DNA of 64,000 nucleotides from Candidatus Latescibacterota bacterium (lineage in GTDB: Bacteria > Latescibacterota > CBDEFO01). The notes under the pieces are model-generated. The model had not been told where the DNA came from, did no database searches, and was given only the letters and a program-made list of their open reading frames with translations. This document shows, in pieces, positions 4,290 to 51,627 of this stretch (its first letter is position 1; each line of letters begins with the position of its first letter). Location of the stretch: positions 672,001 to 736,000 of the forward strand of contig CBDEFO010000007.1 of the NCBI GenBank assembly GCA_965237525.1. The letters are read 5' to 3'. The translations under genes and the position numbers were made by a program.

Positions 4290-4538
4290 CCCGATTAATT
4301 CATAAACTTGATGGAAGTCATTGCGAGGAGCAAAGCGGTCCCCGATTGAGTCTATCGGGGAAGCAATCTCAAGGTTTTATAGTGGTCTCCTATCAGAGCC
4401 GGAGAGTATTACATCTACCACAGAATCGAGATTGCTTCGCCTCCGGCTCGCATTGACACCGAAGGTGGTTAAACGGCATAACTATAATATAATACAATCC
4501 CTTAATTAATACACGGCCTTTTTTGTGAATTATTCGGG
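4290..4538 (+). mobile_element. MITE, long subfamily, copy 1 (249 bp)
   Basis: TIRs CCCGATTAATTCATAAA ... TTTGTGAATTATTCGGG, flanked by TTAG direct repeats (4286-4289 and 4539-4542). Near-identical to the copies at 42601 and 55770. No transposase ORF. Confidence 0.9.
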
Positions 4539-4606
4539 TTAGACGAAGAACATTTATTTTATATGCTTTCCCAAAGTCCAAAGCGTTACCGAGAAAGAGG
4601 ATCCAA

Positions 4607-5001
4607 ATGAGCCGAAAAATAATCGTAGCAATCCTGCTGAGCATCTTGTTGCATACCGCATGTAGTTCTACAAAACCCCCTGCAAGCTTTATAAGCGCCT
4701 TTGACGAGCCTGGGATATGGCAAACTGTTGAGATTCCAGAAGAGCTGAAGAAGGAAGTTTTATGGCAAATAGTATCGGATGGCTTAACTCAAAAATTTGA
4801 CCTGGAGGTGATCGACAAAGATAGTGGTTAGATACGTACTTCTTGAAAGTACAGTTATAGCGCTATAGGAAGGATCAATGAAAAATATAGAACGCGTGTA
4901 TCCTCAAATTGATGGGCAAGGACGGGAAAATCATTCAGATTAAATCGGAGGCTAATTGGCTGAGTAAGGGTGGATCGGTACTTGGCAATGATACATGGTT
5001 G
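4607..5001 (+). pseudogene. Lipoprotein pseudogene
   Basis: Signal peptide with lipobox (LHTAC). The frame continues through stops (DKDSG*IRTS*KYSYSAIGRINEKYRTRV), then frameshifts and abuts a MITE at 5006. Confidence 0.65.
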
Positions 5002-5005
5002 TTAG

Positions 5006-5168
5006 CCCGAATTATTCACAAACTTGGCTCAAATATTGCATAAGTCACTGTTACACAATAGTTCGTTGACTGGTGAATCCACTGGTTCTTCAAAGGAGAC
5101 CGAAAATTAAAAGTCCTGTATTGACAGTAGCTTATCACAGGTTCCTCAGAATGTATGAATTATTCAGG
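5006..5168 (+). mobile_element. MITE, short subfamily, copy A (163 bp)
   Basis: CCCGAATTATTCACAAACTTG ... TGTATGAATTATTCAGG, flanked by TTAG and TTTG. Shares the internal AAAGTCCwGTATT and CTCAGA motifs with the 40751 element. Confidence 0.72.
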
Positions 5169-5300
5169 TTTGAGCATATATACGGTGATCTTCAAGGGAG
5201 AATAGGGAGGGTGCGTGGCTAAAACTTCCGTTGTGCATCACTCCCAGGTAAGCATTTTCCTTTATATATAGAGTCCTGATCTTTAGCGACTAAAAAGTTC

Positions 5301-5329
5301 TTGACAGGGAAGGAATTTTTTCATATATT
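5301..5329 (+). promoter_or_regulatory. sigma70-type promoter of groESL
   Basis: TTGACA-N17-TATATT. Confidence 0.8.
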
Positions 5330-5331
5330 TA

Positions 5332-5359
5332 TTAACACTCAACTTGATAAGAGTGCTAA
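5332..5359 (+). promoter_or_regulatory. CIRCE-like operator (HrcA site)
   Basis: TTAACACTC-N10-GAGTGCTAA versus the consensus TTAGCACTC-N9-GAGTGCTAA, directly downstream of the groES promoter. Confidence 0.75.
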
Positions 5360-5417
5360 AATCTTAACGTAATAAGAGTCTGTTCACAATTACTTATTGG
5401 CAGGAGGAGAAAGCAGA

Positions 5418-5708
5418 ATGAAGGTGAAACCACTGGGCGACCGTGTTTTGATTAAGCCCGTTGAAGAAGAGGAACAGATCAAAGGTGGTATAATTATTCC
5501 GGATACTGCAAAGGAGAAGCCTCAAGAAGGAGAAGTCATCGCTGCGGGACCCGGAAGGATCACAGAATCAGGAGATAAGCTCGCCATGGAGGTAAAAAGT
5601 GGCGACAGGGTCCTGTATGGGAAATATTCAGGCACCGAGGTGCGTTTGAACGATGTGGAGCATCTTATTATGCCAGAGAGTGATATTTTAGCTGTTATCG
5701 AAGATTAG
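5418..5708 (+). CDS. groES: Co-chaperonin GroES
   Basis: [13 protein letters not shown]...[26 protein letters not shown]. Confidence 0.98.
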
Positions 5709-7364
<1,656 letters not shown>

Positions 7365-7391
7365 TGAGAGAAGTTGAGGTCTATTCTCTTC

Positions 7392-7428
7392 GAGCCCCCA
7401 TAGGAACTCCCTGTGGGGGCTTCTTATT
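7392..7428 (+). terminator. Probable intrinsic terminator after groEL
   Basis: Hairpin GAGCCCCCATAGG-AACTC-CCTGTGGGGGCTT followed by CTTATT. Confidence 0.65.
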
Positions 7429-7450
7429 GCGGCCAAAAAATGCTCTGCAA

Positions 7451-7478
7451 TTGAAAAATTTACGCTATGGCGTATAAT
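7451..7478 (+). promoter_or_regulatory. sigma70-type promoter
   Basis: TTGAAA-N16-TATAAT upstream of ORF 7545. Confidence 0.55.
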
Positions 7479-7544
7479 TCTGAAAGAGAGCAGAAGAATA
7501 CAGATTGTCAAGTTTGCTGAAATTCAAAACAGAGGGAAAGGGCC

Positions 7545-8423
7545 ATGAGAGACTTTTCGGAACGTTTGAAGCAAGAGATTTTAGTGTCTGAGTGCGCTAT
7601 GGGGACTATGCTTCAGGGCATAGGGCTTCAGACGGGCGTGGAATTCGGGGAGGAGTGGAACCTTACGGCAAGGGAGAAGGTTCAGTCGATTCACAAAGCA
7701 AACATAGATGCGGGAGCAGGTATTATTTTTACAAATACGTTTGGGGCAAATAGGTTCAGACTTGAGCACTATGGACTTGCCGAGAAGAGCGGGGAAATCA
7801 ATAGTAAAGCTGCTGAGAACATTAGGCAGATAGCCCCAGATTCGGTGTATGTGGCCGGGAATATGGGCCCTTCGGGAGGGATACTGGAAATCTGGGGTGG
7901 AAATAAGTCCCCTGAGGAGATATATGAGGCGTTCGTGGAACAGGTATCGGCTCTTTCAGACGGAGGAATAGACCTGGTGATAGTTGAGACTATGATGGAC
8001 TTGGAGGAGGCTAAGATCGCAGCTCGGGCTTCAAAAGAGAATACAAACCTTCCCGTAATAGCTTCTATGTCTTTCGATAAGGATAGGAATGGTTACAGGA
8101 CTCCCTGGGGGATAAGCCCTCAGATGGCGGTGGAAGGGTTAGCTGCCGCAGGAGCAGATGTGGTGGGAGCAAATTGTCAGATTACCATAGCAGATATGGT
8201 AGGTTTAGCGGCTGAATTTAGGGCGTGCACAGACATTCCTATCATAGTGCAGCCGAACGCCGGAAATCCGGAGATGATAAAAGGAGTCACATATTACAGA
8301 CAGACAGCCCGGGACATGGCAAAATACTTAGACGAGCTTATAGCGGCAGGTCCTAATATAGTAGGCGGCTGCTGCGGCACAACTCCCGAGTACACAGAGC
8401 TCGTGGCCGAAAAAGTCAAGTAA
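7545..8423 (+). CDS. Stand-alone homocysteine S-methyltransferase domain protein (MetH N-terminal module)
   Basis: Motifs AMGTML, TNTFGANR, ETM, GANC, PNAGNP and GGCCGTTPE (zinc-binding cysteines). Confidence 0.9.
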   Translation: MRDFSERLKQEILVSECAMGTMLQGIGLQTGVEFGEEWNLTAREKVQSIHKANIDAGAGIIFTNTFGANRFRLEHYGLAEKSGEINSKAAENIRQIAPDSVYVAGNMGPSGGILEIWGGNKSPEEIYEAFVEQVSALSDGGIDLVIVETMMDLEEAKIAARASKENTNLPVIASMSFDKDRNGYRTPWGISPQMAVEGLAAAGADVVGANCQITIADMVGLAAEFRACTDIPIIVQPNAGNPEMIKGVTYYRQTARDMAKYLDELIAAGPNIVGGCCGTTPEYTELVAEKVK

Positions 8424-8818
8424 CAGGGCGTGATAGATGGGATTTATAATCGTCAGTCTTTTTATGTTTGCCACCTTCAGTCAGTTTATGAAGTTGACTG
8501 TGCACAAAGGATACAATCGCTTTGCCATAGCAACCATAAACTATTTCATTGCCGCTCTGGCGGTGGGCTTGTATGAGCTGAATATAGGGATTTGTAAGTT
8601 CAACGGGAAAGTATTATGGCTTGGGATATTGGCGGGCATCTCTTTTACCGCGGGTTTGATGGCTCAATTCAGAGGAATAGGGATAGGAGGGCTGTCAGTA
8701 ACTCAGACTGTATCTAGGCTCTCCGTGTTGGTTCCTATCAGCCTGTCGATAATCATCTGGCACGAGACTCCAAGTTCGGGGCAAATAGCAGGGATACTAT
8801 TCATCGTGTTGGCCTTAG

Positions 8819-10337
8819 AAGCCTTGTGAAAAACCCTTAGATTCAGAAAGTAGTATAGAACAAGCATTGATAAAGCAGCTCCGATGTATTATATTATGTT
8901 ATTGATAATATTATACATGGAGGAAACAATGACCCCACAAAAGCAGGAACAGACAAATCCGATGTTTCACTATTTTCAGATGGAGGATTTAGTTCCCGAG
9001 GATCATATCCTTCGTCAGATTGATGAGGCAGTTGATTTTTCATTTGTACGAGACGTTGTATCAGATTGTTATTGCCCTGACAATGGCAGACCCGGTATTG
9101 ATCCTGAATTAGTTGTTCGAATGATCCTTATTGGCTATCTGTATAATTTGAGTGAGAATCGGCTCTGTCAGGAAGTGGGGATGCATGCGGCATATCGGTT
9201 GTTTTGTCATCAGACATTTGATGATGCGGTTCCGGATAGGAGCACGATCAACAAGCTTCGCAATCACAAGTGGGCATCCAGTGGGTTGTTTGAACGGATA
9301 ATGCGTCAGGTAGTCCAGTGTTGCATAGATGTCGGTCTTGTGAGCGGTAAACACCTTAGTGTCGACGGTACTCAGATACAAGCTGATGCTTCAGTGAAAA
9401 GTATTGAGCCGATAGAACCCCCTGTTTCTCTTGATGATTATCTCAAGGGAATCGGTTTTGAAGGTGATAAGACAAAGGGTAGGTCCGGGCATCCTCAGGA
9501 TAAAGACTTTCATGGTGAAAAGTGGACGAACCAAACACACCGTTCGACTACAGACCCCGACGCGCGCTTATACAGCAAATCGAAGGGCAAAGGGGCTTTT
9601 CTCTCGTTTATGGGCCATGATCTGATCGACACAAAAAGCAGAGTAATCCTTGAGACTCAGGGCACGCAGGCGACAGGGACAGCAGAGCCCGAAAGTGCCC
9701 TTAAGATGGTAGATGACCTTGAAACATACACCATGCCCAAAGACATTCAGACACTTAGTGCCGATACCGGTTACGGTTCTGGTAATTTTATCGCTGATGT
9801 ACTTGACCGGGGAATCATACCCCATATTCCTCTGCGAGCCGATGAGAAGATTGAACCGATTCCTACATGGAAAAACAAGACAAATTCAGCACATATTCAG
9901 GCCGAACGCGATAGAAAAGTGCGAGAGGCGAAAGCCAGAAATCATGCACGGTCTATCTCATTAACAGCTGACTACAAACTCTCCCGGAGACTCCGTAAAC
10001 GCAGTGAACATATCTTTGCTGAAGCCAAGCAACAACACGGTATGGGACGAGCCCGTTATAGAGGACTAGCCTCACTGAATGAACAGTTGAATCTTGTTGC
10101 AACAGTACAGAATCTCAAGAGGCTTGTATCTTTCATAAGAAGGGGGAAAGCGTCTATGTGTGCCCTGTCTGTCAAAGACAGTGCATCCTGTTCTTCAAAC
10201 AGCTCCTATTCCTTGCTGACCAGAACTCTGATAAGACTATTTTGCTTATTCCACAGCAAAACGATACGATATGCTACTCTTTGACCCATAATCGGCGCTT
10301 CAGACGCTGCCTGGGACATAACTATTTCACAAGGCTT
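8819..10337 (+). mobile_element. IS1182-family insertion sequence, copy 1 (1519 bp)
   Basis: 13-bp TIRs AAGCCTTGTGAAA / TTTCACAAGGCTT and a TTAG target duplication (8815-8818, 10338-10341). Confidence 0.92.
8929..10284 (+). CDS. IS1182-family DDE transposase
   Basis: DUF772-like N-terminus (VPEDHILR...GRPGIDP) and catalytic motifs SVDGT, SADTGY and EHIFAEAK. GGAGG RBS before ATG 8929. Confidence 0.9.
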   Translation: MTPQKQEQTNPMFHYFQMEDLVPEDHILRQIDEAVDFSFVRDVVSDCYCPDNGRPGIDPELVVRMILIGYLYNLSENRLCQEVGMHAAYRLFCHQTFDDAVPDRSTINKLRNHKWASSGLFERIMRQVVQCCIDVGLVSGKHLSVDGTQIQADASVKSIEPIEPPVSLDDYLKGIGFEGDKTKGRSGHPQDKDFHGEKWTNQTHRSTTDPDARLYSKSKGKGAFLSFMGHDLIDTKSRVILETQGTQATGTAEPESALKMVDDLETYTMPKDIQTLSADTGYGSGNFIADVLDRGIIPHIPLRADEKIEPIPTWKNKTNSAHIQAERDRKVREAKARNHARSISLTADYKLSRRLRKRSEHIFAEAKQQHGMGRARYRGLASLNEQLNLVATVQNLKRLVSFIRRGKASMCALSVKDSASCSSNSSYSLLTRTLIRLFCLFHSKTIRYATL

Positions 10338-10947
10338 TTAGTGTTGCTGAGCAAGAAAAGTAGCGTGGTCGTCTCCGAGAATTCGAGTAGATGGTCTGTG
10401 TGGATTGTGCTTTCACTTTTTATCCCTGCAGGTGCGAGCTCGACGATGTCGAAATTAGTGCACGAGGTGGGCTTGGACGACTACAGATCAGCCTATCTTT
10501 TTGTGCTTTATATATCTGCGACAGTTTTATCGGGGGCAGTGTTTTATTTTAAGAGGGATAAGATAAGCCGAGTGGAAGTTCTTATAGGGGTTTTGTTGGG
10601 GTTATGTAACGTGTCAGGAGTGTGGAGTCTGCTGATAGCTTTATCACAGCTCAAAGGTGTGGTGGCCTTTCCTTTTATGAGCTCGGGCGCGGTGATCATA
10701 GTAACTATATTGTCTACGGTGATATGGAAGGAGCATCTGCCATTGAGAGGTGTCTTTGGAATCCTGTGCGCTGCAGCGGCGCTGATACTTATAAATCTGT
10801 GAAATTACCCTATTTCCCCTCTACTGTGAGCCGCATCACAGTAGAGATGCTAATATTTGATTACCTTTGACAATGGGGCAATTTTGAATTACTCGTTGCC
10901 GGAGCGTTTTCCGGATTTTTAGGGCTTTAACAATAAAAAGGCATACG

Positions 10948-13900
10948 ATGAGAAAAATGCTCATATTTCCGGCTCTGCTCCTTGTAATACTATCCTTCGG
11001 GGCGGATGTTCAAGCACAACAAAATAGTAAGTACGTTGAACATCAAGTGATTGTTAAGATGAGTGAAAAGATTCAAGCAGCGGATATCGTTAGTATGAGA
11101 GAGAACCTTAATGCTTCAGTGCTCAAGAAATTATGGATCGTTGACGCTGAACTTTGGGAAACACCGGGAATTACCGTGGAAGATGCTATCTATCAATACC
11201 GTAATGACCCTCGTATCGAATATATTGAGCCGAACTATCGTGTCTGGGCTGTGGAAACTATCCCGAACGATAGCAGCTTTTCTCAGCTTTGGGGATTGCA
11301 CAATACTGGGCAGACAGGCGGAACATCCGATGCGGACATCAATGCTGTTGACGCCTGGGATATTCAGACTGGCACTGATGTCTTAATAGGCGTCATAGAT
11401 ACAGGCGTAGACTGGACGCACGAAGAACTTGCGGATAATATCTGGACTAATCCGGGAGAGATCCCAGATAACGGTATTGATGATGATGGAAACGGTTACA
11501 TCGATGACGTCAGAGGATGGGACTTTGTAAACAAGGATAATGATCCTATGGACGACAACGGTCACGGAACTCACGTAGCCGGGACCATTGCTGCTGTCGG
11601 AAATAATGGAATAGGCGTTGTTGGAGTCTCTTGGTCGGCACAAATAATGCCACTTAAGTTTTTGGGAGCCGATGGTTCTGGAATTACCTCCGATGCGATT
11701 TTAGCTATAGAATATGCGATGATGATGAGCGCAAAATTAACTAACAATAGTTGGGGTAGCAGTGGATTTTCCCAGGCTTTATATAATGCGATTGCTGTTT
11801 CAGGGAACGCTAACATCCTCTTCATAGCCGCCGCAGGAAATGGAGGTGATGATAATATCGGAGATGATAATGATCAGGACCCTCACTACCCTTCCAGCTA
11901 CGATTTGGACAATATCATTTCCGTTGCCTCCACGAATCATAACGATGCTAAATCTTCCTTTTCCAACTTCGGCTTTACGTCAGTCGATCTGGGCGCTCCG
12001 GGCTCAAGTATTCTCAGCACCGTGCCAGGAGATACCTACAGCTTTCTCAGCGGGACCTCTATGGCGACGCCACATGTGTCCGGCGCTGCCGCTTTGATTT
12101 GGGCTCAATATCCAGATCTGACGAATCTTCAGGTCAAGAATAGGATTGTGAGCACTGTAGATCCGATCCCTGCGTTAGATGGCAGATCGGTTACAGGTGG
12201 AAGACTGAATGCCTTTGTTGCATTAGCAGAACCGGATAGTATCCCACCGGCTGCCGTGACCGATTTAGCCGCAGCAGACCCGACCTCAAATTCTATAACG
12301 CTTACATGGACAGCCAGCGGGGATGACAGCGCCTTCGGCACATCAGCGTATTATGATATCCGATATGCAACCTCTCCGATCGATTCCGGGAATTTTGATT
12401 TGGCTACTGAAGTTTTGAACGAACCGGATCCTCAAGAGACTGGTTCTTTGGAGACGTTCACAACAGGTGGACTAGGTTTCAATACGACCTACTATTTTGC
12501 CCTGAGAGTTTTTGATGAGCAGGGGAATGGGTCAAAAGTTTCTAACTCGCCATCGGCTGCGACGTTGGGCAAACCTGATATCTCAGTTACACCGGATTCT
12601 CTGAGCGATAGTCTGCTCACAGCAAGCACATCCACTCAAATCCTTACTATATACAATGTAGGAGAGGGAACGTTAGACTTTACTTTTCCGGATTTTGCTT
12701 CTGCCGCTTTATTAAACACGCCAGGGATTGAAAGGAACGATGTCTCAAGTCGTTTTGAACATTTAGGACTCGAAAAGGGGCTGACAGATCTGCGAGAGGG
12801 GAATCCCCTCATTTTAGGAGCAGGAGGCCCAGATGGCTTTGGCTATCGGTGGATCGATAGCGATGAACCGGGTGGACCCATCTTTAACTGGATTGAAATA
12901 TCGAAAGTCGGGACACCGATATTGTTACTTGATGATGATGTTGAGGAAGTCACTCTGCCTTTTACCTTTCCGTTTTATGGAGAAGCAAAGACAACCCTCA
13001 AGATCTCGTCGAATGGCTATCTTACGTTTGGTGCAGATGGGACAGATTTCTCAAATGATCCTATTCCAGATCCTGTTGATCCCAATGACTTAATTGCGCC
13101 ATTTTGGGACGATTTGAATCCGAGCGCTGACGACACTATCTTTTACTATCACGACACTGATCAGAATCGATTTATTGTGCAGTACACTGGGCTTCCTCAC
13201 TATAGCGCTGGAGGTCCCTACACCTTCCAAGTTATCCTCTACACTGATGGCAGTATGCTCTTTCAGTATCTGGATATGCTTCCTCCTTTGGATAGTGCCA
13301 CGATAGGTGTCGAAAACCGAGATGCTTCCGATGGCTTACAAGTAGCTCTTAACACAGACTTTATCCATGATAGTCTCGCCGTTAGTGTCTCAGCTATTCC
13401 TCAATGGTTAAGCCTTAATCCTGTATCTGGCACTGTTCTACCGGGTTCATCGGTGGACATTGCTGTGAACTTCGATGCAACAGGTTTGAACGGCGGCAAT
13501 TATGATGCGCATATTGTGATTGCCAGCAACGATCCGGATGAGCCACAGGTACGAGTTCCTGCGCATCTGCATGTGACAGGCGTGCCGGATATTGCTGTTT
13601 CTGCTGATACTTTGGATTATGGCTTTGCCCTCATTGGAGCATCTGTCGACGATACGCTGATTGTCTCGAATATAGGGACCGATACATTGACGGTGAGCAG
13701 CATTGCATCGGATAATCCAAATTATACCGTAGATTTGACCGGTCTTAGATTAGCTCCCGGAGAAAGTCAGGAGGCGTTGGTAAGTTTTGCGCCGGTAGAT
13801 ACAGGAATAAGTAGCGGGACATTGACGATAACAAGTGATGTTCCGGATGCACCCATGGTGACTGTGACGCTAACTGGCGAGGGATTAATTGCGCCGAATA

Positions 13901-16227: not shown

Positions 16228-16272
16228 TCTGGAAGTTCAGATGGCTACGACACGATCTAGGAACGGTGTTAC

Positions 16273-24516: not shown

Positions 24517-24625
24517 GGATTGCTTCGCTTCCCCGATCCCCGATAGACTCAATCGGGGACTTGCAATGACATTGTCTGTCTTTAGCCCTTTGTCATTGCA
24601 AAGGGCACATTCCCGAAGGAATCTC
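24517..24625. repeat. REP-like inverted pair (GATTGCTTCG...GCAATGAC / GTCATTGC...GAAGGAATCTC) with a nested 21-bp hairpin at 24538-24558
   Basis: The same motifs recur at about 4317-4457, 26878-26952, 42627-42770, 43547-43675, 46064-46262, 51443-51580, 55850-55972 and 56111-56155. Confidence 0.8.
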
Positions 24626-34757: not shown

Positions 34758-34881
34758 GTAGAATATCAACCTCCGATAGATTCAAGCGGGGGTCAACCCA
34801 ATAGTATGCGTTATAATAGGAGACAAATACTGTCGGCTTTGCTGGGGCTACAACAAACTATGAAGTGGAATGAGGTAAAAG

Positions 34882-38392: not shown

Positions 38393-38524
38393 CGCTATTT
38401 TCATTTTGCGCAAATTTTGAAGCCGATCGCTTTTGTCTTCTCGTAACTACTTCCAGCTATCTGTAACGCGGATAACGGTATAGCTCTTGTGAGTTCAAAC
38501 CAACGAAGAGGGAGGAGTGCAACA

Positions 38525-39349
38525 ATGAATCGTATCATCGTAATGGCCCTTATATGCATGTGCTGTACGGGAAGCAAGATAGATGCTTGGATTATTGACT
38601 TGAAACAGTCTCTTAATCTTGCGAAAGGCGGCACAATCTCCGCAGAGACTGTAGCAAACTGGGTAAACGAAACTACAAGTGCAGATACGCTGCTGTGCAA
38701 CTCCCTAGTGGTCAGCGGAGATATTGATTTCAGGAGTAGTGGGATCGATACCGTGTGGTGTATGCTTTACTTTAAGGAAGCGACATTTCGAGGAAAGTCC
38801 TACTTCACAAGGACGATGTTTCAAGGAGGAGCCGACTTTACAGGAGCGACGTTTCAGGAAAAGGCCGACTTTGTAGAAGCGATCTTTCAAGGAGAAGCCG
38901 GCTTCGCAAAAGCGACGTTTCAACGTGATGCTGATCTCAGGGAAGCGATGTTTCAACGAGATGCCTACTTCACAGAAGCAACGTTTCAGCGAGAAACTAT
39001 CTTCTGGGGTGTAACGTTTCAAGGGGAAGCTCACTTCACAGAAGCGACGTTTCAAGAAGCAGCCGATTTCACAGAAGCGACGTTTCAAGAAGCAGCTGAT
39101 TTCACAGAAGCGACGTTTCAAAGAGGGACGGATTTCACAAAAGCAACGTTTCAACGAGAGACCGAATTTGCAGAAGCGATGTTTCAACGAGATGCCCACT
39201 TCGCAGAAGCGATGTTTCAACGAGAGACAAACTTTAGGGGTGTAATGTTTCAAGGAGAGGCTGACTTCAGGGGTGTGACGTTTCAAGGGAAGGCCGACTT
39301 CAGGGGTGTGACGTCTCACGGAAAGGCCGACTTCAGAGATGCATTTTAG
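38525..39349 (+). CDS. Secreted pentapeptide-repeat protein, probably 3'-degraded
   Basis: GGAGG RBS, hydrophobic leader and 17 repeats of 11 aa. A degenerate continuation follows in another frame after TAG 39347-39349. Confidence 0.75.
   Translation: MNRIIVMALICMCCTGSKIDAWIIDLKQSLNLAKGGTISAETVANWVNETTSADTLLCNSLVVSGDIDFRSSGIDTVWCMLYFKEATFRGKSYFTRTMFQGGADFTGATFQEKADFVEAIFQGEAGFAKATFQRDADLREAMFQRDAYFTEATFQRETIFWGVTFQGEAHFTEATFQEAADFTEATFQEAADFTEATFQRGTDFTKATFQRETEFAEAMFQRDAHFAEAMFQRETNFRGVMFQGEADFRGVTFQGKADFRGVTSHGKADFRDAF
38780..39340 (+). repeat. Coding tandem repeat, 17 x 33 bp
   Basis: Units such as GCGACGTTTCAAGAAGCAGCCGATTTCACAGAA (ATFQEAADFTE), contiguous and without spacers. Confidence 0.92.
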
Positions 39350-39460
39350 TCAAAAGGGAGTCGACGTGACAACTCACTTCCTGAACTCCTTCAAATTACG
39401 TGATGCAACGGCCTTCGCTGATAAAATTTCGTTGAAGATATGCTTCATCTCTTAGGGGCA

Positions 39461-40750: not shown

Positions 40751-40899
40751 GCCGAATAATTCGTGAAATCTGAGAAATCTGCACAAATACTGGACTTTCC
40801 AGTTATCGCACGAAAACAAAGTTTCTTAGCCTAAATTGTATAATCGATTGTCGTACATAGAATTATAGAACTTTTCAGCAAGTTTATGAATTAATCAGG
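40751..40899 (-). mobile_element. MITE, short subfamily, copy B (149 bp)
   Basis: GCCGAATAATTCGTGAAA ... CAAGTTTATGAATTAATCAGG, flanked by CTAA direct repeats (40747-40750, 40900-40903). Confidence 0.8.
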
Positions 40900-40913
40900 C
40901 TAATTGGTTTCTC

Positions 40914-40942: not shown

Positions 40943-41607
40943 TGTAGGTTAATCGGTCTATATACTAAACTTCCGTATTTTTTCCAGTAAGTGAGAACCG
41001 ACTATACTCAGGGGAGAATCCCTGCGCGTGACTTCCTTTACTGAAGCTATAGGATTCTGGACACATCTCGAGTGAGATAGCGCGCATTCTTTCCGCTAAG
41101 GATCTTGAGAAGGCCGTAATCGGAGAGCGAAGCGTGGCAGCCAAAGACGATAATGTATATTGGGGCCCCTTCTCAACTAAGAGCAGAGCACTCATAAATC
41201 ACGGAGATGTTAAAGGCAGGAGCCTGTGAGAATACAATATGATGTAATACCTACAGAGCACGCAAATATGATGTTATAAAAGGAAGTATGACGTAGGCAA
41301 TAATGTAACTTAATATACAATAGATTAGATTACTTAGCAAGATATTTCGTTTTATGGAAAGAAATATTAAGGTATTACCTAATTCGTAATACTTACCAAC
41401 AGGAGGGTTCTATCTAATATTGTCACTCAGAGCAGAGAAGAATTGACATCAGCGATGTCGCTGGATTGGATGACCGTGCTGCTGGAAGCGAAGACGATTT
41501 TAGACCTTTGATTGACTTTCTATAAAACAAACCTCTGAACCGATTTTGTGCACGAGGGTCCTAAGAAATATTCTCCAGAATCCTAACGAGACGTTAAGGA
41601 GCAACGG

Positions 41608-42585: not shown

Positions 42586-42600
42586 CAGAGAAGGAGTTAG

Positions 42601-42849
42601 CCCGATTAATTCATAAACTTGGTGGAGTCATGGCGAGGAGCAAAGCGGTCCCCGATTGAGTCTATCGGGGAAGCAATCTCTAGGTTTTATAGTGGTGTCC
42701 CATGAGAGTCGGAGAGTATTACATCTATCACAGAATCGAGATTTCTTCGCCTTCGGCTCGCAATGACACCGAAGGTGGTTAAACGGCATAACTATAATAT
42801 AATACAATCCCTTAATTAATGCACGGCCTTTTTGTGTGAATTATTCGCG
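42601..42849 (+). mobile_element. MITE, long subfamily, copy 2
   Basis: Near-identical to 4290-4538. TTAG at 42597-42600 and again at 42851-42854, so the right end is ambiguous by 1 bp. Confidence 0.9.
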
Positions 42850-42861
42850 TTTAGGTAGAAA

Positions 42862-43536: not shown

Positions 43537-43698
43537 ATAAACCAGTATCATTGCGAGGCGGCGTGGGCACTGTGTGCGTTGCTGCCACCGTTTTTTGCAG
43601 GGGGCACGAAGTGAGAAGAAGCCACGAAGTGGGTGGGTGAAGCAATCCCCGATTGAATCTATCGGGGACAATCTCAAATAAACTGAGGTTATACATTA

Positions 43699-46050
43699 AT
43701 GCCGAAAAAACGAGAGCAACTGTCTTTAGGAGATAAAATCAAAGATCAGATTGTCAAGATTCTTCACTCCGGAAGCAGCCAGAACGAGCGTCCCTATCTG
43801 AAGAAGCACAATGAGAGCAACGTTCCCGGATTGTATATAATCGGAGACCTTGCCGGCGCGCCGGTTATTAAATATGCCATGAAGCAAGGGTACGATATCA
43901 TAGAGGACATCGCTTCGTTGGCCGGCGCTATCGGTGGAGATGACCCTGATCTTTTCGACGCAGTTATCATTGGCGCTGGTGCGGCCGGTTTGAATGCGGC
44001 GCTGCAAGCCAGAGAGCGCGGCATGCGTTACCTCCTCCTTGAGAAAGAGAAGCTCGCCAACACCATTGAAAATTTCCCCGAAGGCAAATGGGTGTACGCG
44101 GAACCCGATAGCCAGCCGCCCCAAGGTAAGCTCTGGCTCGATGGCGCCAGTAAGGAGGATTTGATCAAGCGTTGGCAACAGATCGTCAATGACAATCAAC
44201 TCAACGTGCGAACAGCAGAAGGGGTGACCAGTTGTGAGAAAAAAGACGGCATCTTTCATGTCCAAACGTCCAAAGGGGTATATCGCTCCAAACGGGTCGT
44301 ATTGGCAACCGGACAGCGGGGGAACCCGCGCAAACTCAATGCGACCGGTGAGGATCGGGAGCAAGTTTACCACCGTCTCTACTCACCGCGCAAGTACAAA
44401 AATGAGAACATCCTTGTAGTTGGAGGCGGAAACAGCGCTGTCGAAGCGGCGATCACACTTAGCGAAAGAAACAAGGTCTATCTTTCCTACCGCGGCGGTG
44501 AATTTGCAAGGATCTTCAAGGACAACAGAGAAAAGCTCGATGAAAAGATCGCCACCAAAAAGATAGAGCCACTTTTAAACTCCAATGTGGTTGAATTCGG
44601 AGAAGATCAAGCCACGTTGAAGATGGATCGCGTCGGGTCCAAAGATACTCAAAAGGTCCCCTGCGACCACGCTTTTGTCTTAATTGGCGCCGAGGTGCCG
44701 CGTGATTTTCTCAAATCGATCGGCATCAAAATGGAAAACGAGTGGGAGGGGAGCATCCTGCGCTCCCTCGCTCTGGTACTCTTGGGCTTCATCGGGCTGT
44801 GGATTTTCGGAGTGCGGTTCGGTGGACATGCATCGCTTGCTGGGGTTGACCTGTCGTTTATTCCCGGGTGGATCGGCTTTCTGATCTGGGCGCTAGGACT
44901 TTATGGATTGATCCACTTTGGGAAAAAAGGTGACCGCTTCGCCTGGTTAGGGTTATCGTTCTTCGTCTGCTACACGGTCTACGGCGCCAAACTCGGTGCG
45001 GGTGAGGAGTTCTGGCCATACAGAGATTGGGGCTATAGATTCCTTTCATTCTTTGATCGACCCTGGTCATTTTGGTACACAGTCCTCTACACGACCTTAA
45101 TGACCGTCTTCGGCTTGGAGGCGCTCAAACGCTGGGGCCTCGACCGCAAGGACAAATTCCAAATCTGGCGCTACGTCAGTCTGATCAGCTTCCAGTTGAT
45201 CTTCTTCTTTCTCATACCCGAGTTCCTCTTTCAATATGCGGTCAAATACCAGTGGGTCGGCGAAAATTTAGCTAACGATCCGGTCTTTGCAGAGCAGGCA
45301 TGGCGCAGCTATGGCATCGTCTACGCCTGGCCGCTCTTTTTCTATACTTTTTTTTATAATCCGCATCAGATATGGGTGCTATGGGGCGTGTTTTTGACTT
45401 TTGTGATAATTCCGATTTTTGTCCTCTTTCATGGCAAACGCTATTGTTCGTGGATCTGCGGTTGCGGCGGACTGGCGGAGACATTTGGCGACCGCTGGCG
45501 ACACCTTGCGCCCAAGGGTAAAACCTCAATCAAGTGGGAGCGGATGATTCTGGTGGTGTTGATCTTCGCCGCTGTCGTCACTGTTCTGGTTTTGGTCAAA
45601 GATATTTACGGAGTCATCGCCGGATCTGCGGATTTAGGGATACGTATCTACCGCCTCTGTGCAGACGTCTGGCTGGTCGGGATCTTGCCGGTGACGCTTT
45701 ATCCGTTTATGGGTGGCAAAGTGTGGTGCCGCTACTGGTGCCCGCTGGCGAAATTGATGCATTTGCAATCGAATCTTTTCACCAAGCTCAAATGGAGCAA
45801 ATATAAAATCGTCGCTAACGACAAGTGCATCAGCTGCTACGAGTGCTCGCGCAATTGTGAGGTGGGCATCGACGTAATGAGCTTTGCTTTGAAGCAAGAA
45901 GAGCTGAACACCTTGAACAGCTCCTGCATCGGCTGTGGGATCTGCGTCAGCGTCTGCCCGATGGATGTCTTAAGTTTTGGCAAAGAGCCTGAAAAAGCAA
46001 ATTCTGGACTAGTGAAGTTGTTGAATACCCAAGGCGAGGTTGTCACTTAA
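43699..46050 (+). CDS. NAD(P)/FAD oxidoreductase (TrxB/YpdA-like) fused to a NapH/MauN-like polytopic 4Fe-4S membrane domain
   Basis: IIGAGAAG, VLATG and VVGGGNSAVEAA, a TM region, CSWICGCG, CRYWCP, CISCYECSRNC and CIGCGICVSVCP. Confidence 0.85.
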   Translation: MPKKREQLSLGDKIKDQIVKILHSGSSQNERPYLKKHNESNVPGLYIIGDLAGAPVIKYAMKQGYDIIEDIASLAGAIGGDDPDLFDAVIIGAGAAGLNAALQARERGMRYLLLEKEKLANTIENFPEGKWVYAEPDSQPPQGKLWLDGASKEDLIKRWQQIVNDNQLNVRTAEGVTSCEKKDGIFHVQTSKGVYRSKRVVLATGQRGNPRKLNATGEDREQVYHRLYSPRKYKNENILVVGGGNSAVEAAITLSERNKVYLSYRGGEFARIFKDNREKLDEKIATKKIEPLLNSNVVEFGEDQATLKMDRVGSKDTQKVPCDHAFVLIGAEVPRDFLKSIGIKMENEWEGSILRSLALVLLGFIGLWIFGVRFGGHASLAGVDLSFIPGWIGFLIWALGLYGLIHFGKKGDRFAWLGLSFFVCYTVYGAKLGAGEEFWPYRDWGYRFLSFFDRPWSFWYTVLYTTLMTVFGLEALKRWGLDRKDKFQIWRYVSLISFQLIFFFLIPEFLFQYAVKYQWVGENLANDPVFAEQAWRSYGIVYAWPLFFYTFFYNPHQIWVLWGVFLTFVIIPIFVLFHGKRYCSWICGCGGLAETFGDRWRHLAPKGKTSIKWERMILVVLIFAAVVTVLVLVKDIYGVIAGSADLGIRIYRLCADVWLVGILPVTLYPFMGGKVWCRYWCPLAKLMHLQSNLFTKLKWSKYKIVANDKCISCYECSRNCEVGIDVMSFALKQEELNTLNSSCIGCGICVSVCPMDVLSFGKEPEKANSGLVKLLNTQGEVVT

Positions 46051-46354
46051 AATAGTAGACGGTGAGATTGGTTCTGGTTCTGCTTCGTGTCTCGTTCGGG
46101 GTCGAAACTCCTGACGGCGTCGGGGCTTGGCACCTCGCAATGACTAAGGGTAAAATCCAAGCAACGTCATTGCGAGTCCTCGATTGAGTCCCCGATTGAG
46201 TCTATTGCGGGGGGGGATCGGGGAAGCCCAGAGCGAAGCGAAGGGTCAGCGAAGTAATCTCACCTCGAAAGGAGACGCGAAGCGGAGTTCTGTGGTTGAA
46301 ACGGCTTTTGCAGGACTTCTTTCACCTAGCCACTGATATTAAAGGGAAACTACT

Positions 46355-47773
46355 ATGAACAAACAGGAATTCGGTTTGATAGGCCTGGGTGTTATGGGAC
46401 AAAACTTCGTGCTCAATGTTGAGCGAAACGGGTTTAGTGTGTCCGTTTACAACCGAACTCTTTCAAGGACGACCGCCTTTGTTGAGGACGAAGCAGTGGG
46501 GAAAAATATCCAGCCGAGCTACGCTCTGGAGGAATTTGTGGCGTCTTTGGAAAGACCGCGCCGCATCATGCTTCTGGTCAAAGCAGGAGCGCCTGTAGAT
46601 GCTACTATTGGTCAACTTGTGCCTCTATTAGACGAAAATGACCTGATTATAGACGGGGGCAACTCCTGTTTTCTGGATACGGGGCGGCGTGCAAAAGAGC
46701 TAGAGGCTTACGGGATCAACTTTTTGGGTATGGGAGTTTCAGGCGGAGAAGAAGGCGCCCTGTGGGGACCGAGCCTGATGCCCGGCGGCTCTCCTGAGGC
46801 TTACAGGAAAGTTGAACCGATTATGAAAGCTGTAGCCGCCCAGGCAGGGGAAGACAGGGAACCTTGTGTAACCTATATCGGACCGGGGGGTTCTGGGCAT
46901 TACGTAAAGATGATTCACAACGGCATCGAGTACGGCGATATGCAGCTTATAGCGGAGGCATATGATCTCCTCAAAGGCGCTTTAGATCTTTCAGCGCTGG
47001 AATTCCATCAGCTTTTCTCTGAATGGAATGAGTCAGGACTTTCCTCTTTTCTTATCGAAATCACTGCCAAAGTTTTCGAGAAGATAGATGGAGAGACTGG
47101 AAAGCCGTTAGTTGACGTTATCCTGGACAAGGCAGGTCAAAAGGGAACGGGAAGATGGACCAGCCAAAACGCCCTGGAGTTGGGAGCCGCAATACCCACA
47201 ATTACCGCCGCTGTGGACGGACGTATCCTATCGGCGCAAAAAGATGAACGCGTTGCGGCGGCTAAGATCTTAAAGGGTCCGTCGGGAAAATATAGCGGCT
47301 CCTCACAGGAGTTGATAGATTCGGTCAAAGATGCGCTCTATGCGGCTAAAATCTGCTCTTATGCCCAAGGGATGAGCCTGCTTAGAACAGCTTCAGGAGA
47401 ATACGAGTACAATCTGAACTTAGGCGCTATTGCGAAGATATGGCGCGCAGGCTGTATTATCAGAGCAAGGCTCCTTGATGACATCACGAACGCCTATCTT
47501 CGCAATGGGAATTTGCCCAACCTCCTCGTTGACGAAGAATTCCGAAAGGCGATCAACGCCCACCAGGGTGCCTTGCGTTTTTCGATTGGTAAAGCTGTAG
47601 CGTTAGGCGTCCCCGTTCCAGCTATGAGCGCTTCACTGGCTTATTATGATGCCTACCGCAGCGAACGACTGCCTGCTAACTTGATCCAAGCGCAGAGGGA
47701 TTTGTTCGGAGCCCACACCTTCCAGCGCATCGATAAGCCGGGCATTTATCATGCCGATTGGGATATGGAATAA
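46355..47773 (+). CDS. gndA: 6-phosphogluconate dehydrogenase, NADP-dependent, decarboxylating
   Basis: Motifs GLIGLGVMG, VYNRT, GVSGGEEGA, KMIHNGIEY and QAQRDLFGAHT. Confidence 0.97.
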   Translation: MNKQEFGLIGLGVMGQNFVLNVERNGFSVSVYNRTLSRTTAFVEDEAVGKNIQPSYALEEFVASLERPRRIMLLVKAGAPVDATIGQLVPLLDENDLIIDGGNSCFLDTGRRAKELEAYGINFLGMGVSGGEEGALWGPSLMPGGSPEAYRKVEPIMKAVAAQAGEDREPCVTYIGPGGSGHYVKMIHNGIEYGDMQLIAEAYDLLKGALDLSALEFHQLFSEWNESGLSSFLIEITAKVFEKIDGETGKPLVDVILDKAGQKGTGRWTSQNALELGAAIPTITAAVDGRILSAQKDERVAAAKILKGPSGKYSGSSQELIDSVKDALYAAKICSYAQGMSLLRTASGEYEYNLNLGAIAKIWRAGCIIRARLLDDITNAYLRNGNLPNLLVDEEFRKAINAHQGALRFSIGKAVALGVPVPAMSASLAYYDAYRSERLPANLIQAQRDLFGAHTFQRIDKPGIYHADWDME

Positions 47774-47828
47774 TCTCACAGCGGATAGGGTTCGCTAAGT
47801 AAGGACTCAAACTGACGAGGAGCATAAA

Positions 47829-49376
47829 ATGGATCGATCCACACCCACCGTTATCGTTATCTTCGGTGCGTCGGGGGATTTAACGAAACGAAAATTGATA
47901 CCGGCCCTTTTTCAATTAGCCCACGAGGGTCTGCTCCCAGAACATACTCAGATTGTAGGCTTTGCCCGGAGGCCGAAATCGCACGATCAGTTTCGGGCTG
48001 AAATGGAAGAGGCCGTGACGAATTTTTCCCGAGCTCGGTCCGCAAAAGGCTCAAAAGAGTGGTCTGACTTTGCCTTACGCCTTTACTACCACACAGCAAG
48101 CTTCGAAGATGCCCTTGGATTCGTCGGTCTAAAAGATTTACTTGGCCAGCTCGATAGAGATAAGGGGATTCCTCCCGACACTGGCAATCGCCTCTTCTAT
48201 CTTTCTACTTCTCCCGATGTCTTCCCTGATATCATGCCCATGCTGGAGGCAGCCGAACTCATCGCAGATCCATATGATGAGAGCCGCTGGACCCGCGTGA
48301 TTGTGGAAAAACCGTTCGGGCGAGATCTGGATTCGGCCCGTAGCTTGAACAGGGACATACTGTCGATATTAGACGAAGGCCAGGTTTACCGGATTGACCA
48401 CTATTTAGGCAAAGAGACGGTCCAAAATATTATGGCCTTCCGCTTCGGCAACAGCATCTTTGAGCCTCTGTGGAATCGCCGGTACGTCGATCATGTTCAA
48501 ATCACAGTGGCAGAGACCATGGGTGTAGAAGGGCGCGGCGGCTATTACGATCGTTCAGGGGCTCTGCGCGACGTGGTGCAAAATCACATGCTGCAGCTTT
48601 TGGCCCTGGTAGCCATGGAACCGCCTGCTTCCTTTGCGCCCGATGCTGTGCGAGGTGAAAAGGTGAAGGTTTTAAGCGCCCTGCGTCCCATTTTGCCAGA
48701 TGAGGTGGGTAAATATGCCATCCGCGGTCAATACACCACCGGATCTATTAATGGACGGGCGATCCCCGATTATCGCACGGAGTCGAATGTGGATCCTAAC
48801 TCTTCCACTGAAACCTACGTAGCCTTAAAGTTACATGTTGACAACTGGCGCTGGGCGGATGTCCCCTTTTACCTGCGCACTGGAAAAGCCCTGCCGGAGC
48901 GTGTCACTGAAATTACTATCCAGTTTAAACAGCCTCCGTTAGCCCTTTTTGGCCATGCCTACCACGACGGCCATAAAAAAGCTGATAAAATGCAGCCTAA
49001 CACCCTGCGTCTTCGGGTCCAGCCCGATGAGGGCATCAGCTTAAATTTCGGTCTGAAAATCCCCGGTCCACAAATGATTTTGCAACCCACCGATATGGAA
49101 TTTTACTATAACAAAGTCTTCGATGCCGAACCTCCTGAAGCCTATGAGCGTCTCATTCTGGACGCTATCTTGGGTGACAGCACCCTCTTTATCCGCCACG
49201 ATGAGGTAGAGGCCGCCTGGAAGCTAATTGACGGTGTCCTGGAAGGTTGGGCACAAGATAGCCCGCCCCCGATTTACCCTTATCGGGCCGGTAGCTGGGG
49301 TCCACACACGGCAGATGAGTTTATAGAAAAAGATGGCAGAAGGTGGGTAGCATTAACGATAGGCTGTGATACTTAA
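47829..49376 (+). CDS. zwf: Glucose-6-phosphate 1-dehydrogenase
   Basis: Motifs IFGASGDL, EKPFG and RIDHYLGKETVQN. Confidence 0.98.
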   Translation: MDRSTPTVIVIFGASGDLTKRKLIPALFQLAHEGLLPEHTQIVGFARRPKSHDQFRAEMEEAVTNFSRARSAKGSKEWSDFALRLYYHTASFEDALGFVGLKDLLGQLDRDKGIPPDTGNRLFYLSTSPDVFPDIMPMLEAAELIADPYDESRWTRVIVEKPFGRDLDSARSLNRDILSILDEGQVYRIDHYLGKETVQNIMAFRFGNSIFEPLWNRRYVDHVQITVAETMGVEGRGGYYDRSGALRDVVQNHMLQLLALVAMEPPASFAPDAVRGEKVKVLSALRPILPDEVGKYAIRGQYTTGSINGRAIPDYRTESNVDPNSSTETYVALKLHVDNWRWADVPFYLRTGKALPERVTEITIQFKQPPLALFGHAYHDGHKKADKMQPNTLRLRVQPDEGISLNFGLKIPGPQMILQPTDMEFYYNKVFDAEPPEAYERLILDAILGDSTLFIRHDEVEAAWKLIDGVLEGWAQDSPPPIYPYRAGSWGPHTADEFIEKDGRRWVALTIGCDT

Positions 49377-49506
49377 AAACCTGCGTAACCTGTTGCCTGA
49401 GCACGCCATTGATCTGCAAATATAAACAAAAGGTTTGGCTGTTTAGCTTTCATCAGCTCCTTCTTTGTCCCTTCACATAGTAATCTATTCACCAGTTGCT
49501 GTTTCT

Positions 49507-50268
49507 TTAGTGAAGGGAGTGGTCAGGTGCACTTGCTCCTAAAGTAGTTGTGAGTAACTCACTTTTTTCTTCCGTTGGCAGATTTGAGGGAAAAATTTCT
49601 ACTTCATCAGTCCACCCATCAGTACCTTCACAATTAACAGACACTTCAACCTTAAAGGGTTCTAACTTCTTGCCTTCATCGAGAACCATTCTAATCCAAA
49701 TAGTTATAGGTTGTTGCTTATTCCTATTCCAATACAGCAAATTGCTATTGGAAAGTACACCTGTATCTCCAAACTCTAACCAATGAAGCTCCCTCTGGGA
49801 AGAAAACATATTAGAATTGAAGGTGAGTTCTGTGTAATGCCTTTGCCCTTCTTTCTTGTCTTTGGGATGTAGTTTCTTAAGGGGAAGTCTAAAAGTCAAA
49901 ACTGGCTTAACCCAATCGAAGTCTGAAGTATTAGTTATCTCAAATTCAACTTTACGGGAAGTAAAAGGATTAGGATGATCTTGGTAGACTCTTTTCAATG
50001 GTTCTGACAGCTCATCCTTAGGATGTTTATGAATTTCAGCCGAACTAATATGTGCTTTTACTTCCGCCTTCACCTTCTTCCTAGGAGGATCTGCTATAGC
50101 TAGGGCAACAATAACAGTAATCAATACTGCGAGCGTGCCTACAACTTGAACTACATTTCCAATATTAGAGGGTTTCTTCTTTGGTAAATCGTGAATCCAG
50201 AAACAAGATACCACACCCACAAAAACCAGAATCATTATGACGATCCAGTATCCCCACTTAATATTCAT
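49507..50268 (-). CDS. Hypothetical membrane protein, AT-rich
   Basis: 253-aa ORF with two N-terminal TM helices, an AGGAGG RBS, and a minus-strand promoter TTGTCT-N17-TATATT at 50334-50362. Confidence 0.7.
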   Translation of the reverse strand: MNIKWGYWIVIMILVFVGVVSCFWIHDLPKKKPSNIGNVVQVVGTLAVLITVIVALAIADPPRKKVKAEVKAHISSAEIHKHPKDELSEPLKRVYQDHPNPFTSRKVEFEITNTSDFDWVKPVLTFRLPLKKLHPKDKKEGQRHYTELTFNSNMFSSQRELHWLEFGDTGVLSNSNLLYWNRNKQQPITIWIRMVLDEGKKLEPFKVEVSVNCEGTDGWTDEVEIFPSNLPTEEKSELLTTTLGASAPDHSLH

Positions 50269-50621
50269 ATTTTTCTAACCTCCTAGCATTTGCTCCATAT
50301 TTGATCGTAGTAACTCATTTTGATTCTCCCTATAATATACAAAAGTTCAGAGCAGTAGACAAGGATTTATGCCAGTTACCCACAAGTTCCTATGATTCCA
50401 TTGTTAAATCATAGCTTCCACAGAGAGAAACATATAAAACTCCTCGGTAAAAGTCGAGGTCTAATAGCCTCTGAACGAAACAAACGCACGTGATTTTCAT
50501 CCGATTATTTCTTAAAACACATTGACAAACAAAGACAGCAAAGATTATATTTTTGAACGGAATTGTATCGGCATCGAAGCCGTTGCGTATCTTCCTATCT
50601 TGTTTCCACCACGAGGAGAGG

Positions 50622-50970
50622 ATGGCCTCTAAAATCAGAATAGGGTTCATAGGATGTGGGGGCATATCGAACGGTCACGCAAAGAGGATCGCTCAGATTT
50701 AAGAAGGACAGATCCCGAGCTCTCGGGAAGAGGGCAGTTGAACGATTCGGGAAGCCATCTTCCGGATATAATCTTTTGGATGACAGATCTTGGCGTATCT
50801 GAGGTCTCTGCGTTCTGCGATGATTTAGGGACCCCTGTGGATATAAACACCCTTGTGTCGATGTAGTTTGAGAACGGAGCGCAGGGGAAATTACCATAGT
50901 AGGCGGCGCGCCGACGACGTACTTGGAGGACATAAGTATGATGAAAGTCTCCAATTATTAGGATTTGCAC
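50622..50970 (+). pseudogene. Gfo/Idh/MocA oxidoreductase remnant with a large internal deletion
   Basis: MASKIRIGFIGCGGISNGHA...* is joined to DPELSGRGQLNDSGSHLPD...M*FENGAQG. RBS present, and TTGACA at 50522. Confidence 0.8.
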
Positions 50971-51072
50971 TAAAAATAGCTAGGGAAACAATGTTCAAAC
51001 CCCAGACAAAGGGGCGGGATTATTGTCAGAAGGAATTGAGTTCTGAAAGAGACAGAAAAGGGATCTGCACTT

Positions 51073-51372
51073 GTGGCTAATCTGGAGTCCATGATCGAAT
51101 TTGCCAGCGATAGTATTGTGAGCAAGACGGTTGCGGAACAGTCCTGCTGCAAGGTGGTGTTGTTCTGCATGTCGTCCCGACATACGCTGTCCGAGCACAC
51201 AGCGCGTTCCGCCGCCGCGATTCAGATCCTCCAGGGGAGAGGAAAGTTACAGCTGGGAGAAGAAAGCTGTTGTGCCGAGGCGGGCGTCTGGATATACATG
51301 CCTTCAAATTTGCCGCACGCTGTCCAGGCAGAAGAAGACCTCGTGTTTCTGCTCACGTTGTTCCAATTATAG
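51073..51372 (+). CDS. Cupin domain protein
   Basis: Motifs LSEHTA, QILQGRG and MPSNLPHAVQAEED. Confidence 0.8.
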   Translation: MANLESMIEFASDSIVSKTVAEQSCCKVVLFCMSSRHTLSEHTARSAAAIQILQGRGKLQLGEESCCAEAGVWIYMPSNLPHAVQAEEDLVFLLTLFQL

Positions 51373-51627
51373 AAACGATTTACTTTCTCAAGACCGACTG
51401 TGCTCCCAGAGACGTGTGGACAGCATAACGGCAGCGGACAGCGAGATTGCTTCGGGGGATTTCATTCCCCTATCAATGCCTAAGTCAGAACCGAGGAATG
51501 ACAGAAGGCAAGAGCAGCCAGGGATTGAAGATCTCACAAGCAACGTCTTTGCGACCCCCCCCGATTGAATCTATCGGGGATGGCGTTGGGGGCTACTGTT
51601 TACTGGAGAAGGAAGAGGAGGGGTATT

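Follow-up and report, generated by a model that had tools for sequence, protein, structure and literature searches.

The 64,000-nt stretch of DNA analyzed here (the window) comes from a Candidatus Latescibacterota bacterium (GenBank assembly GCA_965237525.1, contig CBDEFO010000007.1, positions 672,001 to 736,000), and it carries copies of a gene-less 21-nt hairpin, CCCCGAT-TGA(G/A)TCT-ATCGGGG, which measures 23 nt when the paired flanking bases are counted. A sequence-only reading of the window had proposed that the hairpin is an ultra-short mobile element inserted into repetitive extragenic palindromic (REP)-like units, which themselves lie inside a miniature inverted-repeat transposable element (MITE). 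The hairpin was examined in the source genome of the window (G000) and in a genome of the same genus used for comparison (G001), where the comparison covered 2.8 of 4.54 Mb plus ~15 kb around the orthologue of the window. The hairpin is mobile, as 94 independent pairs of filled and empty sites were identified. All seven hairpin sites described for the window were present, with no matches in 100 window shuffles, and they are listed below with the repeats that contain them.

4287..4541 (+), MITE copy 1, filled at site 1; 238 bp when empty, with ~19-bp terminal inverted repeats and two inverted CGTC-type REP units
4317..4370 (+), CGTC-type REP unit within MITE copy 1, broken by the hairpin
4340..4360 (+), hairpin, exact; a +20 junction, with the target ACG replaced by GT plus the 21-mer
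24517..24570 (-), CGTC-type REP unit with the hairpin and a leftover older arm (24531-24537); apparently nested
24538..24558 (-), hairpin, exact
34771..34791 (-), hairpin with 2 mismatches, intergenic, outside any REP unit
42598..42847 (+), MITE copy 2, filled at site 1; G001 has no MITE here
42650..42670 (+), hairpin, exact, with a junction identical to that at 4340
43639..43675 (+), REP tail split by the hairpin, with CAAT on both sides and a +26-type junction; also filled in G001
43647..43667 (+), hairpin, exact; with the flanking T-A pair, an 8-bp stem and a 7-nt loop
46178..46223 (+), older hairpin in a CGTC-type REP unit (start 46166), interrupted by another copy; single in G001
46190..46210 (+), inner hairpin, 2 mismatches
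51559..51579 (+), hairpin, exact; also in G001, where it lies ~60 bases further from the upstream REP
55766..56003 (-), MITE copy 3, empty at both hairpin sites

The contrast between the filled MITE copies 1 and 2 and the empty copy 3 was confirmed, and the nesting of hairpin in REP unit in MITE is real, as a special case of a genome-wide element. The hairpin was found at many different positions within the REP-like unit, in agreement with the sequence-only reading. Other details were borne out in part. The CAAT on both sides at 43639-43675 was seen, but the site is filled in G001 as well, so no empty allele exists for it. The doubled half-arms at 46178-46223 were also seen, but they represent a hairpin nested in an older copy, with a single hairpin in G001, and the arm at 24531 is present and looks like a relic of the same nested kind. 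Residence in a REP-like unit, which had been described as nearly constant, applied to five of the seven window sites, two of which have the same MITE junction, but it does not hold genome-wide. The two sites outside REP units were that at 34771, which has no REP, and that at 51559, where the G001 allele has a REP ~60 bases upstream.

Folding of the hairpin with the flanking pair gives, on both strands, an 8-bp stem with a 7-nt loop (z -3.6 to -4.1). A total of 561 copies were found in G000 at up to three mismatches, compared with none in two genome shuffles, and at one mismatch there were 374 copies in G000 and 360 in G001. Neighboring pairs at most 70 nt apart numbered only 16 among 577 copies. 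The loop was constrained even when the search left it free: positions 8, 9, 10, 12, 13, 14, and 15 were constant at 89-98% (325 stems), and position 11 alone was free. Paired changes at one stem pair kept the pairing in 19 contexts, which represent two spreading variants and not 19 events. The loop contains GANTC, a word without genome-wide enrichment (ratio 1.04), and CGATCG was likewise not enriched. The densest cluster of hairpins (G000:C8:740000-752700, eight copies in one 5-kb bin) is made of a loop variant with a constant left flank, and it holds tandem 27-nt units within a paralogous gene array.

Within the phylum sample, the hairpin family was limited to one genus. No copy was found in 39 other genomes of the phylum by a 1-mismatch search, and a wider pattern had matches in three of 168 phylum genomes (272, 235, and 1 copies), with 165 of 166 others containing none. 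A scan of a genome collection included, among the matches listed, a Latescibacterota genome, several Deltaproteobacteria/Thermodesulfobacteriota genomes, and one Nanoarchaeia-labelled contig, and 13 of 61 genomes around one such carrier held the hairpin. The Nanoarchaeia-labelled contig (L066), which is possibly misbinned, contains the single exact copy of its genome. Metagenome contigs provided 66 distinct contexts, 63 of which were scorable by flank length, and complementary -1/+1 bases were present in 60 of these 63. Viral contigs contained no exact 21-mer, while the wider family occurred in seven stretches. The window had no match in Rfam, and no description of the hairpin was found by full-text literature searching, where the sequence itself was not a search term.

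Mobility was evident from the comparison of the two genomes. Among the 250 copies of G000 with an alignable orthologue, 164 were one-to-one with G001 and 63 were absent from it, while 35 of 220 such copies in G001 were without a counterpart in G000. Orthologous and paralogous pairs together numbered 188 and were reduced to the 94 independent events, with 36 nested in older copies. In addition, single members of high-copy repeats were filled against 52-137 empty siblings, and because these siblings stay empty, the direction of change at such repeats is a gain. The hairpin was linked to 82 of the 364 indels of 10-80 nt found in 2.02 Mb of G000/G001 alignment. Two near-identical blocks (G000:C4:546000-549900 and C2:17800-21600), which represent a duplication or assembly redundancy, were entered once in the event tables. 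In four sequencing runs, the contigs end at the hairpin sites or include them, and no empty allele was seen, which proves nothing; no RNA run was listed as containing the hairpin. Other short hairpins also vary in presence between G000 and G001, including an 18-nt family (three cases), a 22-24-nt family, and a relative of the 21-mer that is 15-17 nt long, has a loop of 3 nt, and is present in 20 intact copies in G000.

The distribution of targets showed an enrichment in REP units without specialization. A CGTC-REP word was found at most 30 nt away from 73 of 318 independent intergenic copies (23%), compared with 2.1% of random intergenic positions, an 11-fold enrichment that supports the REP-like unit as one target. 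The hairpin is not REP-specific, however: an arm of another hairpin copy adjoined 74 of the 318 copies (23%, 43-fold), a heptamer tract adjoined 48 (12-fold), a GTAG-type word adjoined 16 (3.4-fold), and none of the six repeat classes tested adjoined 136. Inside CGTC-REP units, the hairpin followed the orientation of the tag in 31 of 34 independent contexts. A similar bias was found at heptamer tracts (55 vs. 16 flank hits), and the bias in REP units is therefore explicable by the copying of founders. A bias relative to transcription was absent, with 81 vs. 77 copies between co-directional genes and 59 vs. 50 in open reading frames (ORFs). No bias relative to replication was detected in these genomes, whose replichores are not resolvable; a suggested replichore bias was rejected, as both strands were represented throughout with no link to the skew, although the skew is weak and the negative is weak as well.

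Only 51 of 515 copies (~10%) were located deep in ORFs, although ORFs cover 63% of the genome by calls that are crude and include some spurious ones. The length change was a multiple of three in 18 of 18 deep-ORF events, compared with 25 of 67 intergenic events (p=8e-7). This difference indicates that the process yields variable lengths, which are filtered by selection; frameshifting events are purged from genes and the copies sit in frame. As a result of such events, 6-9 residues are added to enzymes such as ProA, which has seven extra residues relative to the solved homologue 1o20, while another homologue is naturally longer in the same loop.

The junctions of the 94 events were bimodal, with gains of +18-21 in 51 events and of +26-27 in 23, and the other 20 were mostly nested replacements or poorer alignments. 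About five flanking bases per side are rewritten. Among 46 non-nested pairs with at least 90% identity, the mismatch between filled and empty alleles at positions 1-5 was 59/30/30/28/26% to the left of the 21-mer and 61/26/28/13/15% to the right, and beyond position 5 it dropped to 0-15% (mostly 2-9%) on both sides. A symmetric flank consensus, YYNRY/RYNRR, covers the same 5 nt and is kept in 109 repeat-free contexts, in 88 of which the -1/+1 bases pair, compared with 59.6 by permutation. Loci with a common loop or stem variant had 4.43 of 10 adjacent bases in common vs. 3.34 (maximum 3.65 in 500 permutations), with no excess similarity 21-25 nt away. Since variants share adjacent but not distal bases, the copies travel with their flanks. 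The +19/+20 events remove target bases, and in the +19 class CG was central in 9 of 13 non-nested targets. The +26/27 class included a perfect 3-4-nt duplication around the 23-mer in 6 of 18 non-nested events, and several other events had a foreign CCTG or CTTG at the left or its complement at the right. The +27 peak was also present outside ORFs (7 of 41 non-nested intergenic events), and five pairs of tandem 27-nt units were found.

The 238-bp MITE provided further insight into the nature of the change. Of its 53 copies in G000, 36 carried the hairpin at site 1 and 11 carried it at site 2. At four distinct orthologous MITE loci, the site was filled in G000 but empty in G001 and the junction was the same at all four, while four other loci agreed in state between the genomes. 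Two of the discordant loci keep common private single-nucleotide polymorphisms 11-24 nt from the hairpin, and two filled loci have one rare hairpin variant in common. Because a deletion cannot restore the empty bases and a replacement of the whole MITE would erase the private polymorphisms, the change calls for a short templated patch, whichever its direction. An autonomous partner of the MITE was sought but not found, and the only long element with MITE ends was a MITE copy split by an element of the insertion sequence type IS1182 (G000:C3:61899-63648). Elsewhere in the window, shorter relatives of the MITE are located near 4998-5176 and 40873-40905, two inverted IS1182-family copies (8813-10340 and 57927-59454) are 99% identical, and a 33-bp tandem repeat of ~19 units (38736-39362) overlaps the ORF at 38489-39349.

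An HUH/RAYT-type enzyme and a GIY-YIG nuclease had been suggested as movers. The former found no support, as no match to the RAYT family (PF01797) was identified in G000 or G001. The latter guess fared better only indirectly. An intact 95-aa Ssn-type GIY-YIG gene is encoded in G000 (G000:C4:479839-480123, minus strand) between two inverted NTS-like repeats and within an apparent local tandem duplication, but its flanking repeats differ in type, no hairpin lies within 3 kb of it, and no Ssn gene was found in G001. In other genomes, tagged repeats with the core of the hairpin family flank two ssn homologues (L330 and L342) among the 15 loci fetched. Exact GTCAT-tagged copies of the family were found in all three Deltaproteobacteria-group genomes tested (G041, G042, and G044), and RAYT genes were present in all four Deltaproteobacteria-group carriers tested, none of which contained Ssn. 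G000 and G001 contained no exact copies with the CGTC/GTCAT tag, and their 11 and 5 one-mismatch hits were all mismatched in the tag. Separately, a 20-nt piece of the repeat flanking the G000 ssn gene is presence/absence polymorphic between G000 and G001, and in a carrier genome (L332) the repeat lying upstream of an ssn homologue seems to hold an inserted short hairpin of a different kind.

Matches to reverse transcriptase (RT) were absent from G000, which is 96.6% complete, and numbered two in G001, while IS110 had one match in G000 and none in G001. Two full-length Xer-like recombinases and integrase fragments were identified in G000. No intact integron integrase exceeded the cut-off in either genome; C-terminal integron-type relics are present at non-orthologous places (G000:C6:60619-61040 and G001:C1:212754-213180) and lie outside the hairpin clusters. 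RAYT, RT, IS110, and an intact integron integrase were rejected as the mover, since none is common to both genomes. A longer autonomous element or an enzyme gene beside the hairpin was rejected as well, based on the clustering of 627 ORF segments located at most 600 nt from hairpins in metagenome loci. The 25 largest clusters, inspected by eye and with no family scan, contained no recurrent nuclease or recombinase, and there was no Ssn hit.

Taken together, we consider it somewhat probable that the hairpin spreads by short-patch templated overwriting from a hairpin donor and not by precise transposition. The donor would be a single-stranded piece of ~23-31 nt from an existing copy, composed of the folded hairpin and up to ~5 flanking bases per side. 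Its tails would base-pair with an exposed target wherever a few bases match, and the paired donor would be fixed by replication or repair, with host repair functions carrying out the integration. The +19 class may arise from a match between the two end bases of the stem (C and G) and the central CG of the target, and the +26/27 class from pairing of both tails with one and the same set of 5-6 target bases. The enrichment in REP units, heptamer tracts, and older copies would reflect the longer homology that filled copies offer to their empty siblings. As to its origin, the hairpin probably derives, without the tag, from the core of an Ssn-associated repeat of the CGTC-tagged type. Within the overwriting model, a nuclease of the Ssn type that supplies donor pieces or nicks is a weak candidate, and its involvement seems doubtful to us. 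A more general proposal can be advanced only tentatively, namely that the hairpin is a self-propagating, transposase-free DNA unit of ~31 nt, which was shed from Ssn-associated repeats. Such a unit would spread by templated overwriting of 0-6 bases at the target, would move into sibling repeats through conversion tracts of less than ~12 nt, and would have passed between phyla without a change in its sequence.

Overwriting of this kind resembles SPDIR (short-patch double illegitimate recombination), where short ectopic single strands from arbitrary donors integrate at microhomologies on the lagging strand, resulting in microindels of 3 to ~100 bp (10.1101/2023.11.22.568220). SPDIR events are very rare unless repair genes are lost, and they are raised in recA/recJ/dprA mutants (10.1101/2023.11.22.568220). 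The likeness is in the short replacement patch with donor bases from elsewhere, as indicated by the flank rewriting and the linkage of variants to flanks. The difference is that one fixed hairpin family with hundreds of copies accounts for 82 of 364 indels, while recJ and mutS are intact; a repair deficiency was rejected as an explanation, both genes being intact in both genomes. Several observations weigh against overwriting by host repair. The near-invariant loop and the exact 21-mer in other phyla suggest a dedicated recognition factor and not generic repair, and SPDIR is very rare in repair-proficient cells, to which the intact recJ and mutS and a dprA-like gene in the window would correspond. 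A recombinase would also be in keeping with the sharp +27 peak, where the crossovers lie close to the borders of a 6-nt window. The linkage between variants and flanks is partly due to nested composites and one paralogous cluster, and the direction of the state changes in the MITE is not fixed by an outgroup. Moreover, Ssn homologues do not track the hairpin (5 of 13 carriers vs. 15 of 48 non-carriers), and neither a donor molecule nor an enzyme was seen.

A tyrosine recombinase, integron-integrase-like or Xer-like, may instead act on the folded hairpin, although this appears rather improbable. A 27-nt single-stranded circle (the 21-mer plus the 6-nt spacer of the previous site) would be inserted by one strand exchange that leaves a foreign spacer on one side, and the +19/+20 events would be imprecise by-products. 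Such a scheme accounts well for the +27 class but poorly for the more frequent +19/+20 class. It agrees with the occurrence of the +27 peak outside ORFs, the five pairs of tandem 27-nt units, the foreign 4-nt cores at the left or, complemented, at the right, and the switch points beside the ends of the 6-nt window; the wider family can also be drawn as a hairpin with unpaired bases, and integron-type integrase relics are present in both genomes. However, the more frequent +18-21 gains (51 vs. 23) remove or rewrite target bases, no intact integron integrase was found and the relics lie outside hairpin clusters, and the same junction at several orthologous MITE loci is not explained by a recombinase alone. 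We regard as quite improbable that a dedicated but transient nuclease-transposase (Ssn/GIY-YIG or HUH/RAYT) cuts and pastes the hairpin, as proposed for the doublets of REP sequences known as REPINs, with the flank changes as repair scars. The family does match the core of the repeats flanking two ssn homologues, the tag orientation is followed in 31 of 34 CGTC-REP contexts, RAYT genes occur in the four Deltaproteobacteria-group carriers, and SsnA is described in excerpts of PMC11893778 as binding single-stranded hairpin repeats and cutting upstream of them. In contrast, the two Latescibacterota genomes lack RAYT, Ssn is missing in G001 and in those four carriers, the comparable bias found at heptamer tracts suggests that founders were copied, and the ends of the hairpin are not fixed. 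Additionally, no Latescibacterota copy has an exact tag, and according to the same excerpts SsnA cleavage is affected by the bases located upstream of the palindrome (PMC11893778).

An RNA-templated insertion, where an RT copies a hairpin transcript into breaks, would also produce templated flanks and variable junctions, and two RT matches exist in G001. It is very improbable, as the genome without an RT match, G000, is the one with more lineage-specific filled sites (63 vs. 35), and an orientation bias to transcription was not observed. Finally, the hairpin may be imagined as a host-selected site, such as a protein-binding or methylation word, which is mostly ancestral and sometimes deleted. 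The 164 of 250 alignable G000 copies common to G001 and the GANTC in the loop are in line with this view, but we find it barely credible and it is already largely refuted: single copies are filled among 52-137 empty siblings, the empty alleles hold unrelated target bases that a deletion could not restore, ProA has its seven extra residues relative to one solved homologue, only one genus in the phylum sample contains the family, and GANTC is not enriched genome-wide.

By comparison of descriptions, the hairpin works like the small dispersed repeats (SDRs) of cyanobacteria, its closest known system. SDR1-8 of the Nostocaceae were reportedly described by Elhai et al. in 2008. SDRs show nesting and range from 21 to 27 nt in size. 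Excerpts of three papers (PMC4390886, PMC5861425, PMC2884548) present SDRs as gene-less repeats of ~20 nt thought to be mobile by an enzyme that is not known, report that SDR5 inserts precisely between bases 3 and 4 of HIP1, and place no SDR outside the Nostocaceae. The hairpin is likewise gene-less and dispersed, with a 21-nt core and gains of 18-27, and is mobile as judged by filled and empty sites, but it differs in its variable gains, its rewritten flanks, and the lack of a fixed octamer target, for which only a CG-centered preference (9 of 13) was observed. A relation to the CGTC-REP units and the Ssn-related motifs (SRMs) is indicated by the tagged repeats of Deltaproteobacteria-group genomes and those beside two ssn homologues, whose core the hairpin matches, and the host REP unit is itself of the type found beside ssn homologues. 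The hairpin nevertheless has no tag, is absent from the flanks of the local ssn gene, inserts as single copies, and has been shown to move, while the mobility of SRMs is a hypothesis in excerpts of PMC11893778 and CGTC repeats are reported in parts of PMC3733652 to be without a dedicated transposase. It is therefore not a member of the CGTC-REP/SRM family, though probably derived from it.

Similarly, the hairpin resembles REPs and REPINs as short extragenic palindromes amplified within a genome, but a REPIN moves as an inverted doublet and is linked to a RAYT, as given in excerpts of PMC3116915, while the hairpin inserts singly and no RAYT was found. Compared with MITEs and insertion sequences, it has neither fixed ends nor a constant target-site duplication (6 of 18 perfect). 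The Rickettsia palindromic elements (RPEs) and the GC clusters of yeast mitochondria are both longer than the 21-nt hairpin. The RPEs are palindromes tolerated in frame in proteins, as described in parts of PMC3733652, and the hairpin shares this tolerance. The GC clusters of var1 show unidirectional inheritance and conversion between copies, but they belong to an organelle, and their AG/TAG terminal repeats are interpreted as target duplications (excerpts of PMC8811140).

The movement of ~20-base repeats has been an open question since the cyanobacterial SDRs, and the genome pair offers 94 independent events with a defined junction spectrum (+19/+20, +26/+27, and ~5 bases rewritten per side). 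New here are this spectrum, the 5-nt limit of rewriting, the short-patch change in state at orthologous MITE loci, and the match with hairpins that flank ssn genes. In this lineage, the hairpin contributes measurably to variation, being associated with 82 of 364 short indels and adding 6-9 residues to enzymes such as ProA. If the tentative proposal of a transposase-free unit of ~31 nt is true, it would explain in general how palindromes of the SDR, REP, and RPE types come to lie in spacers and proteins.

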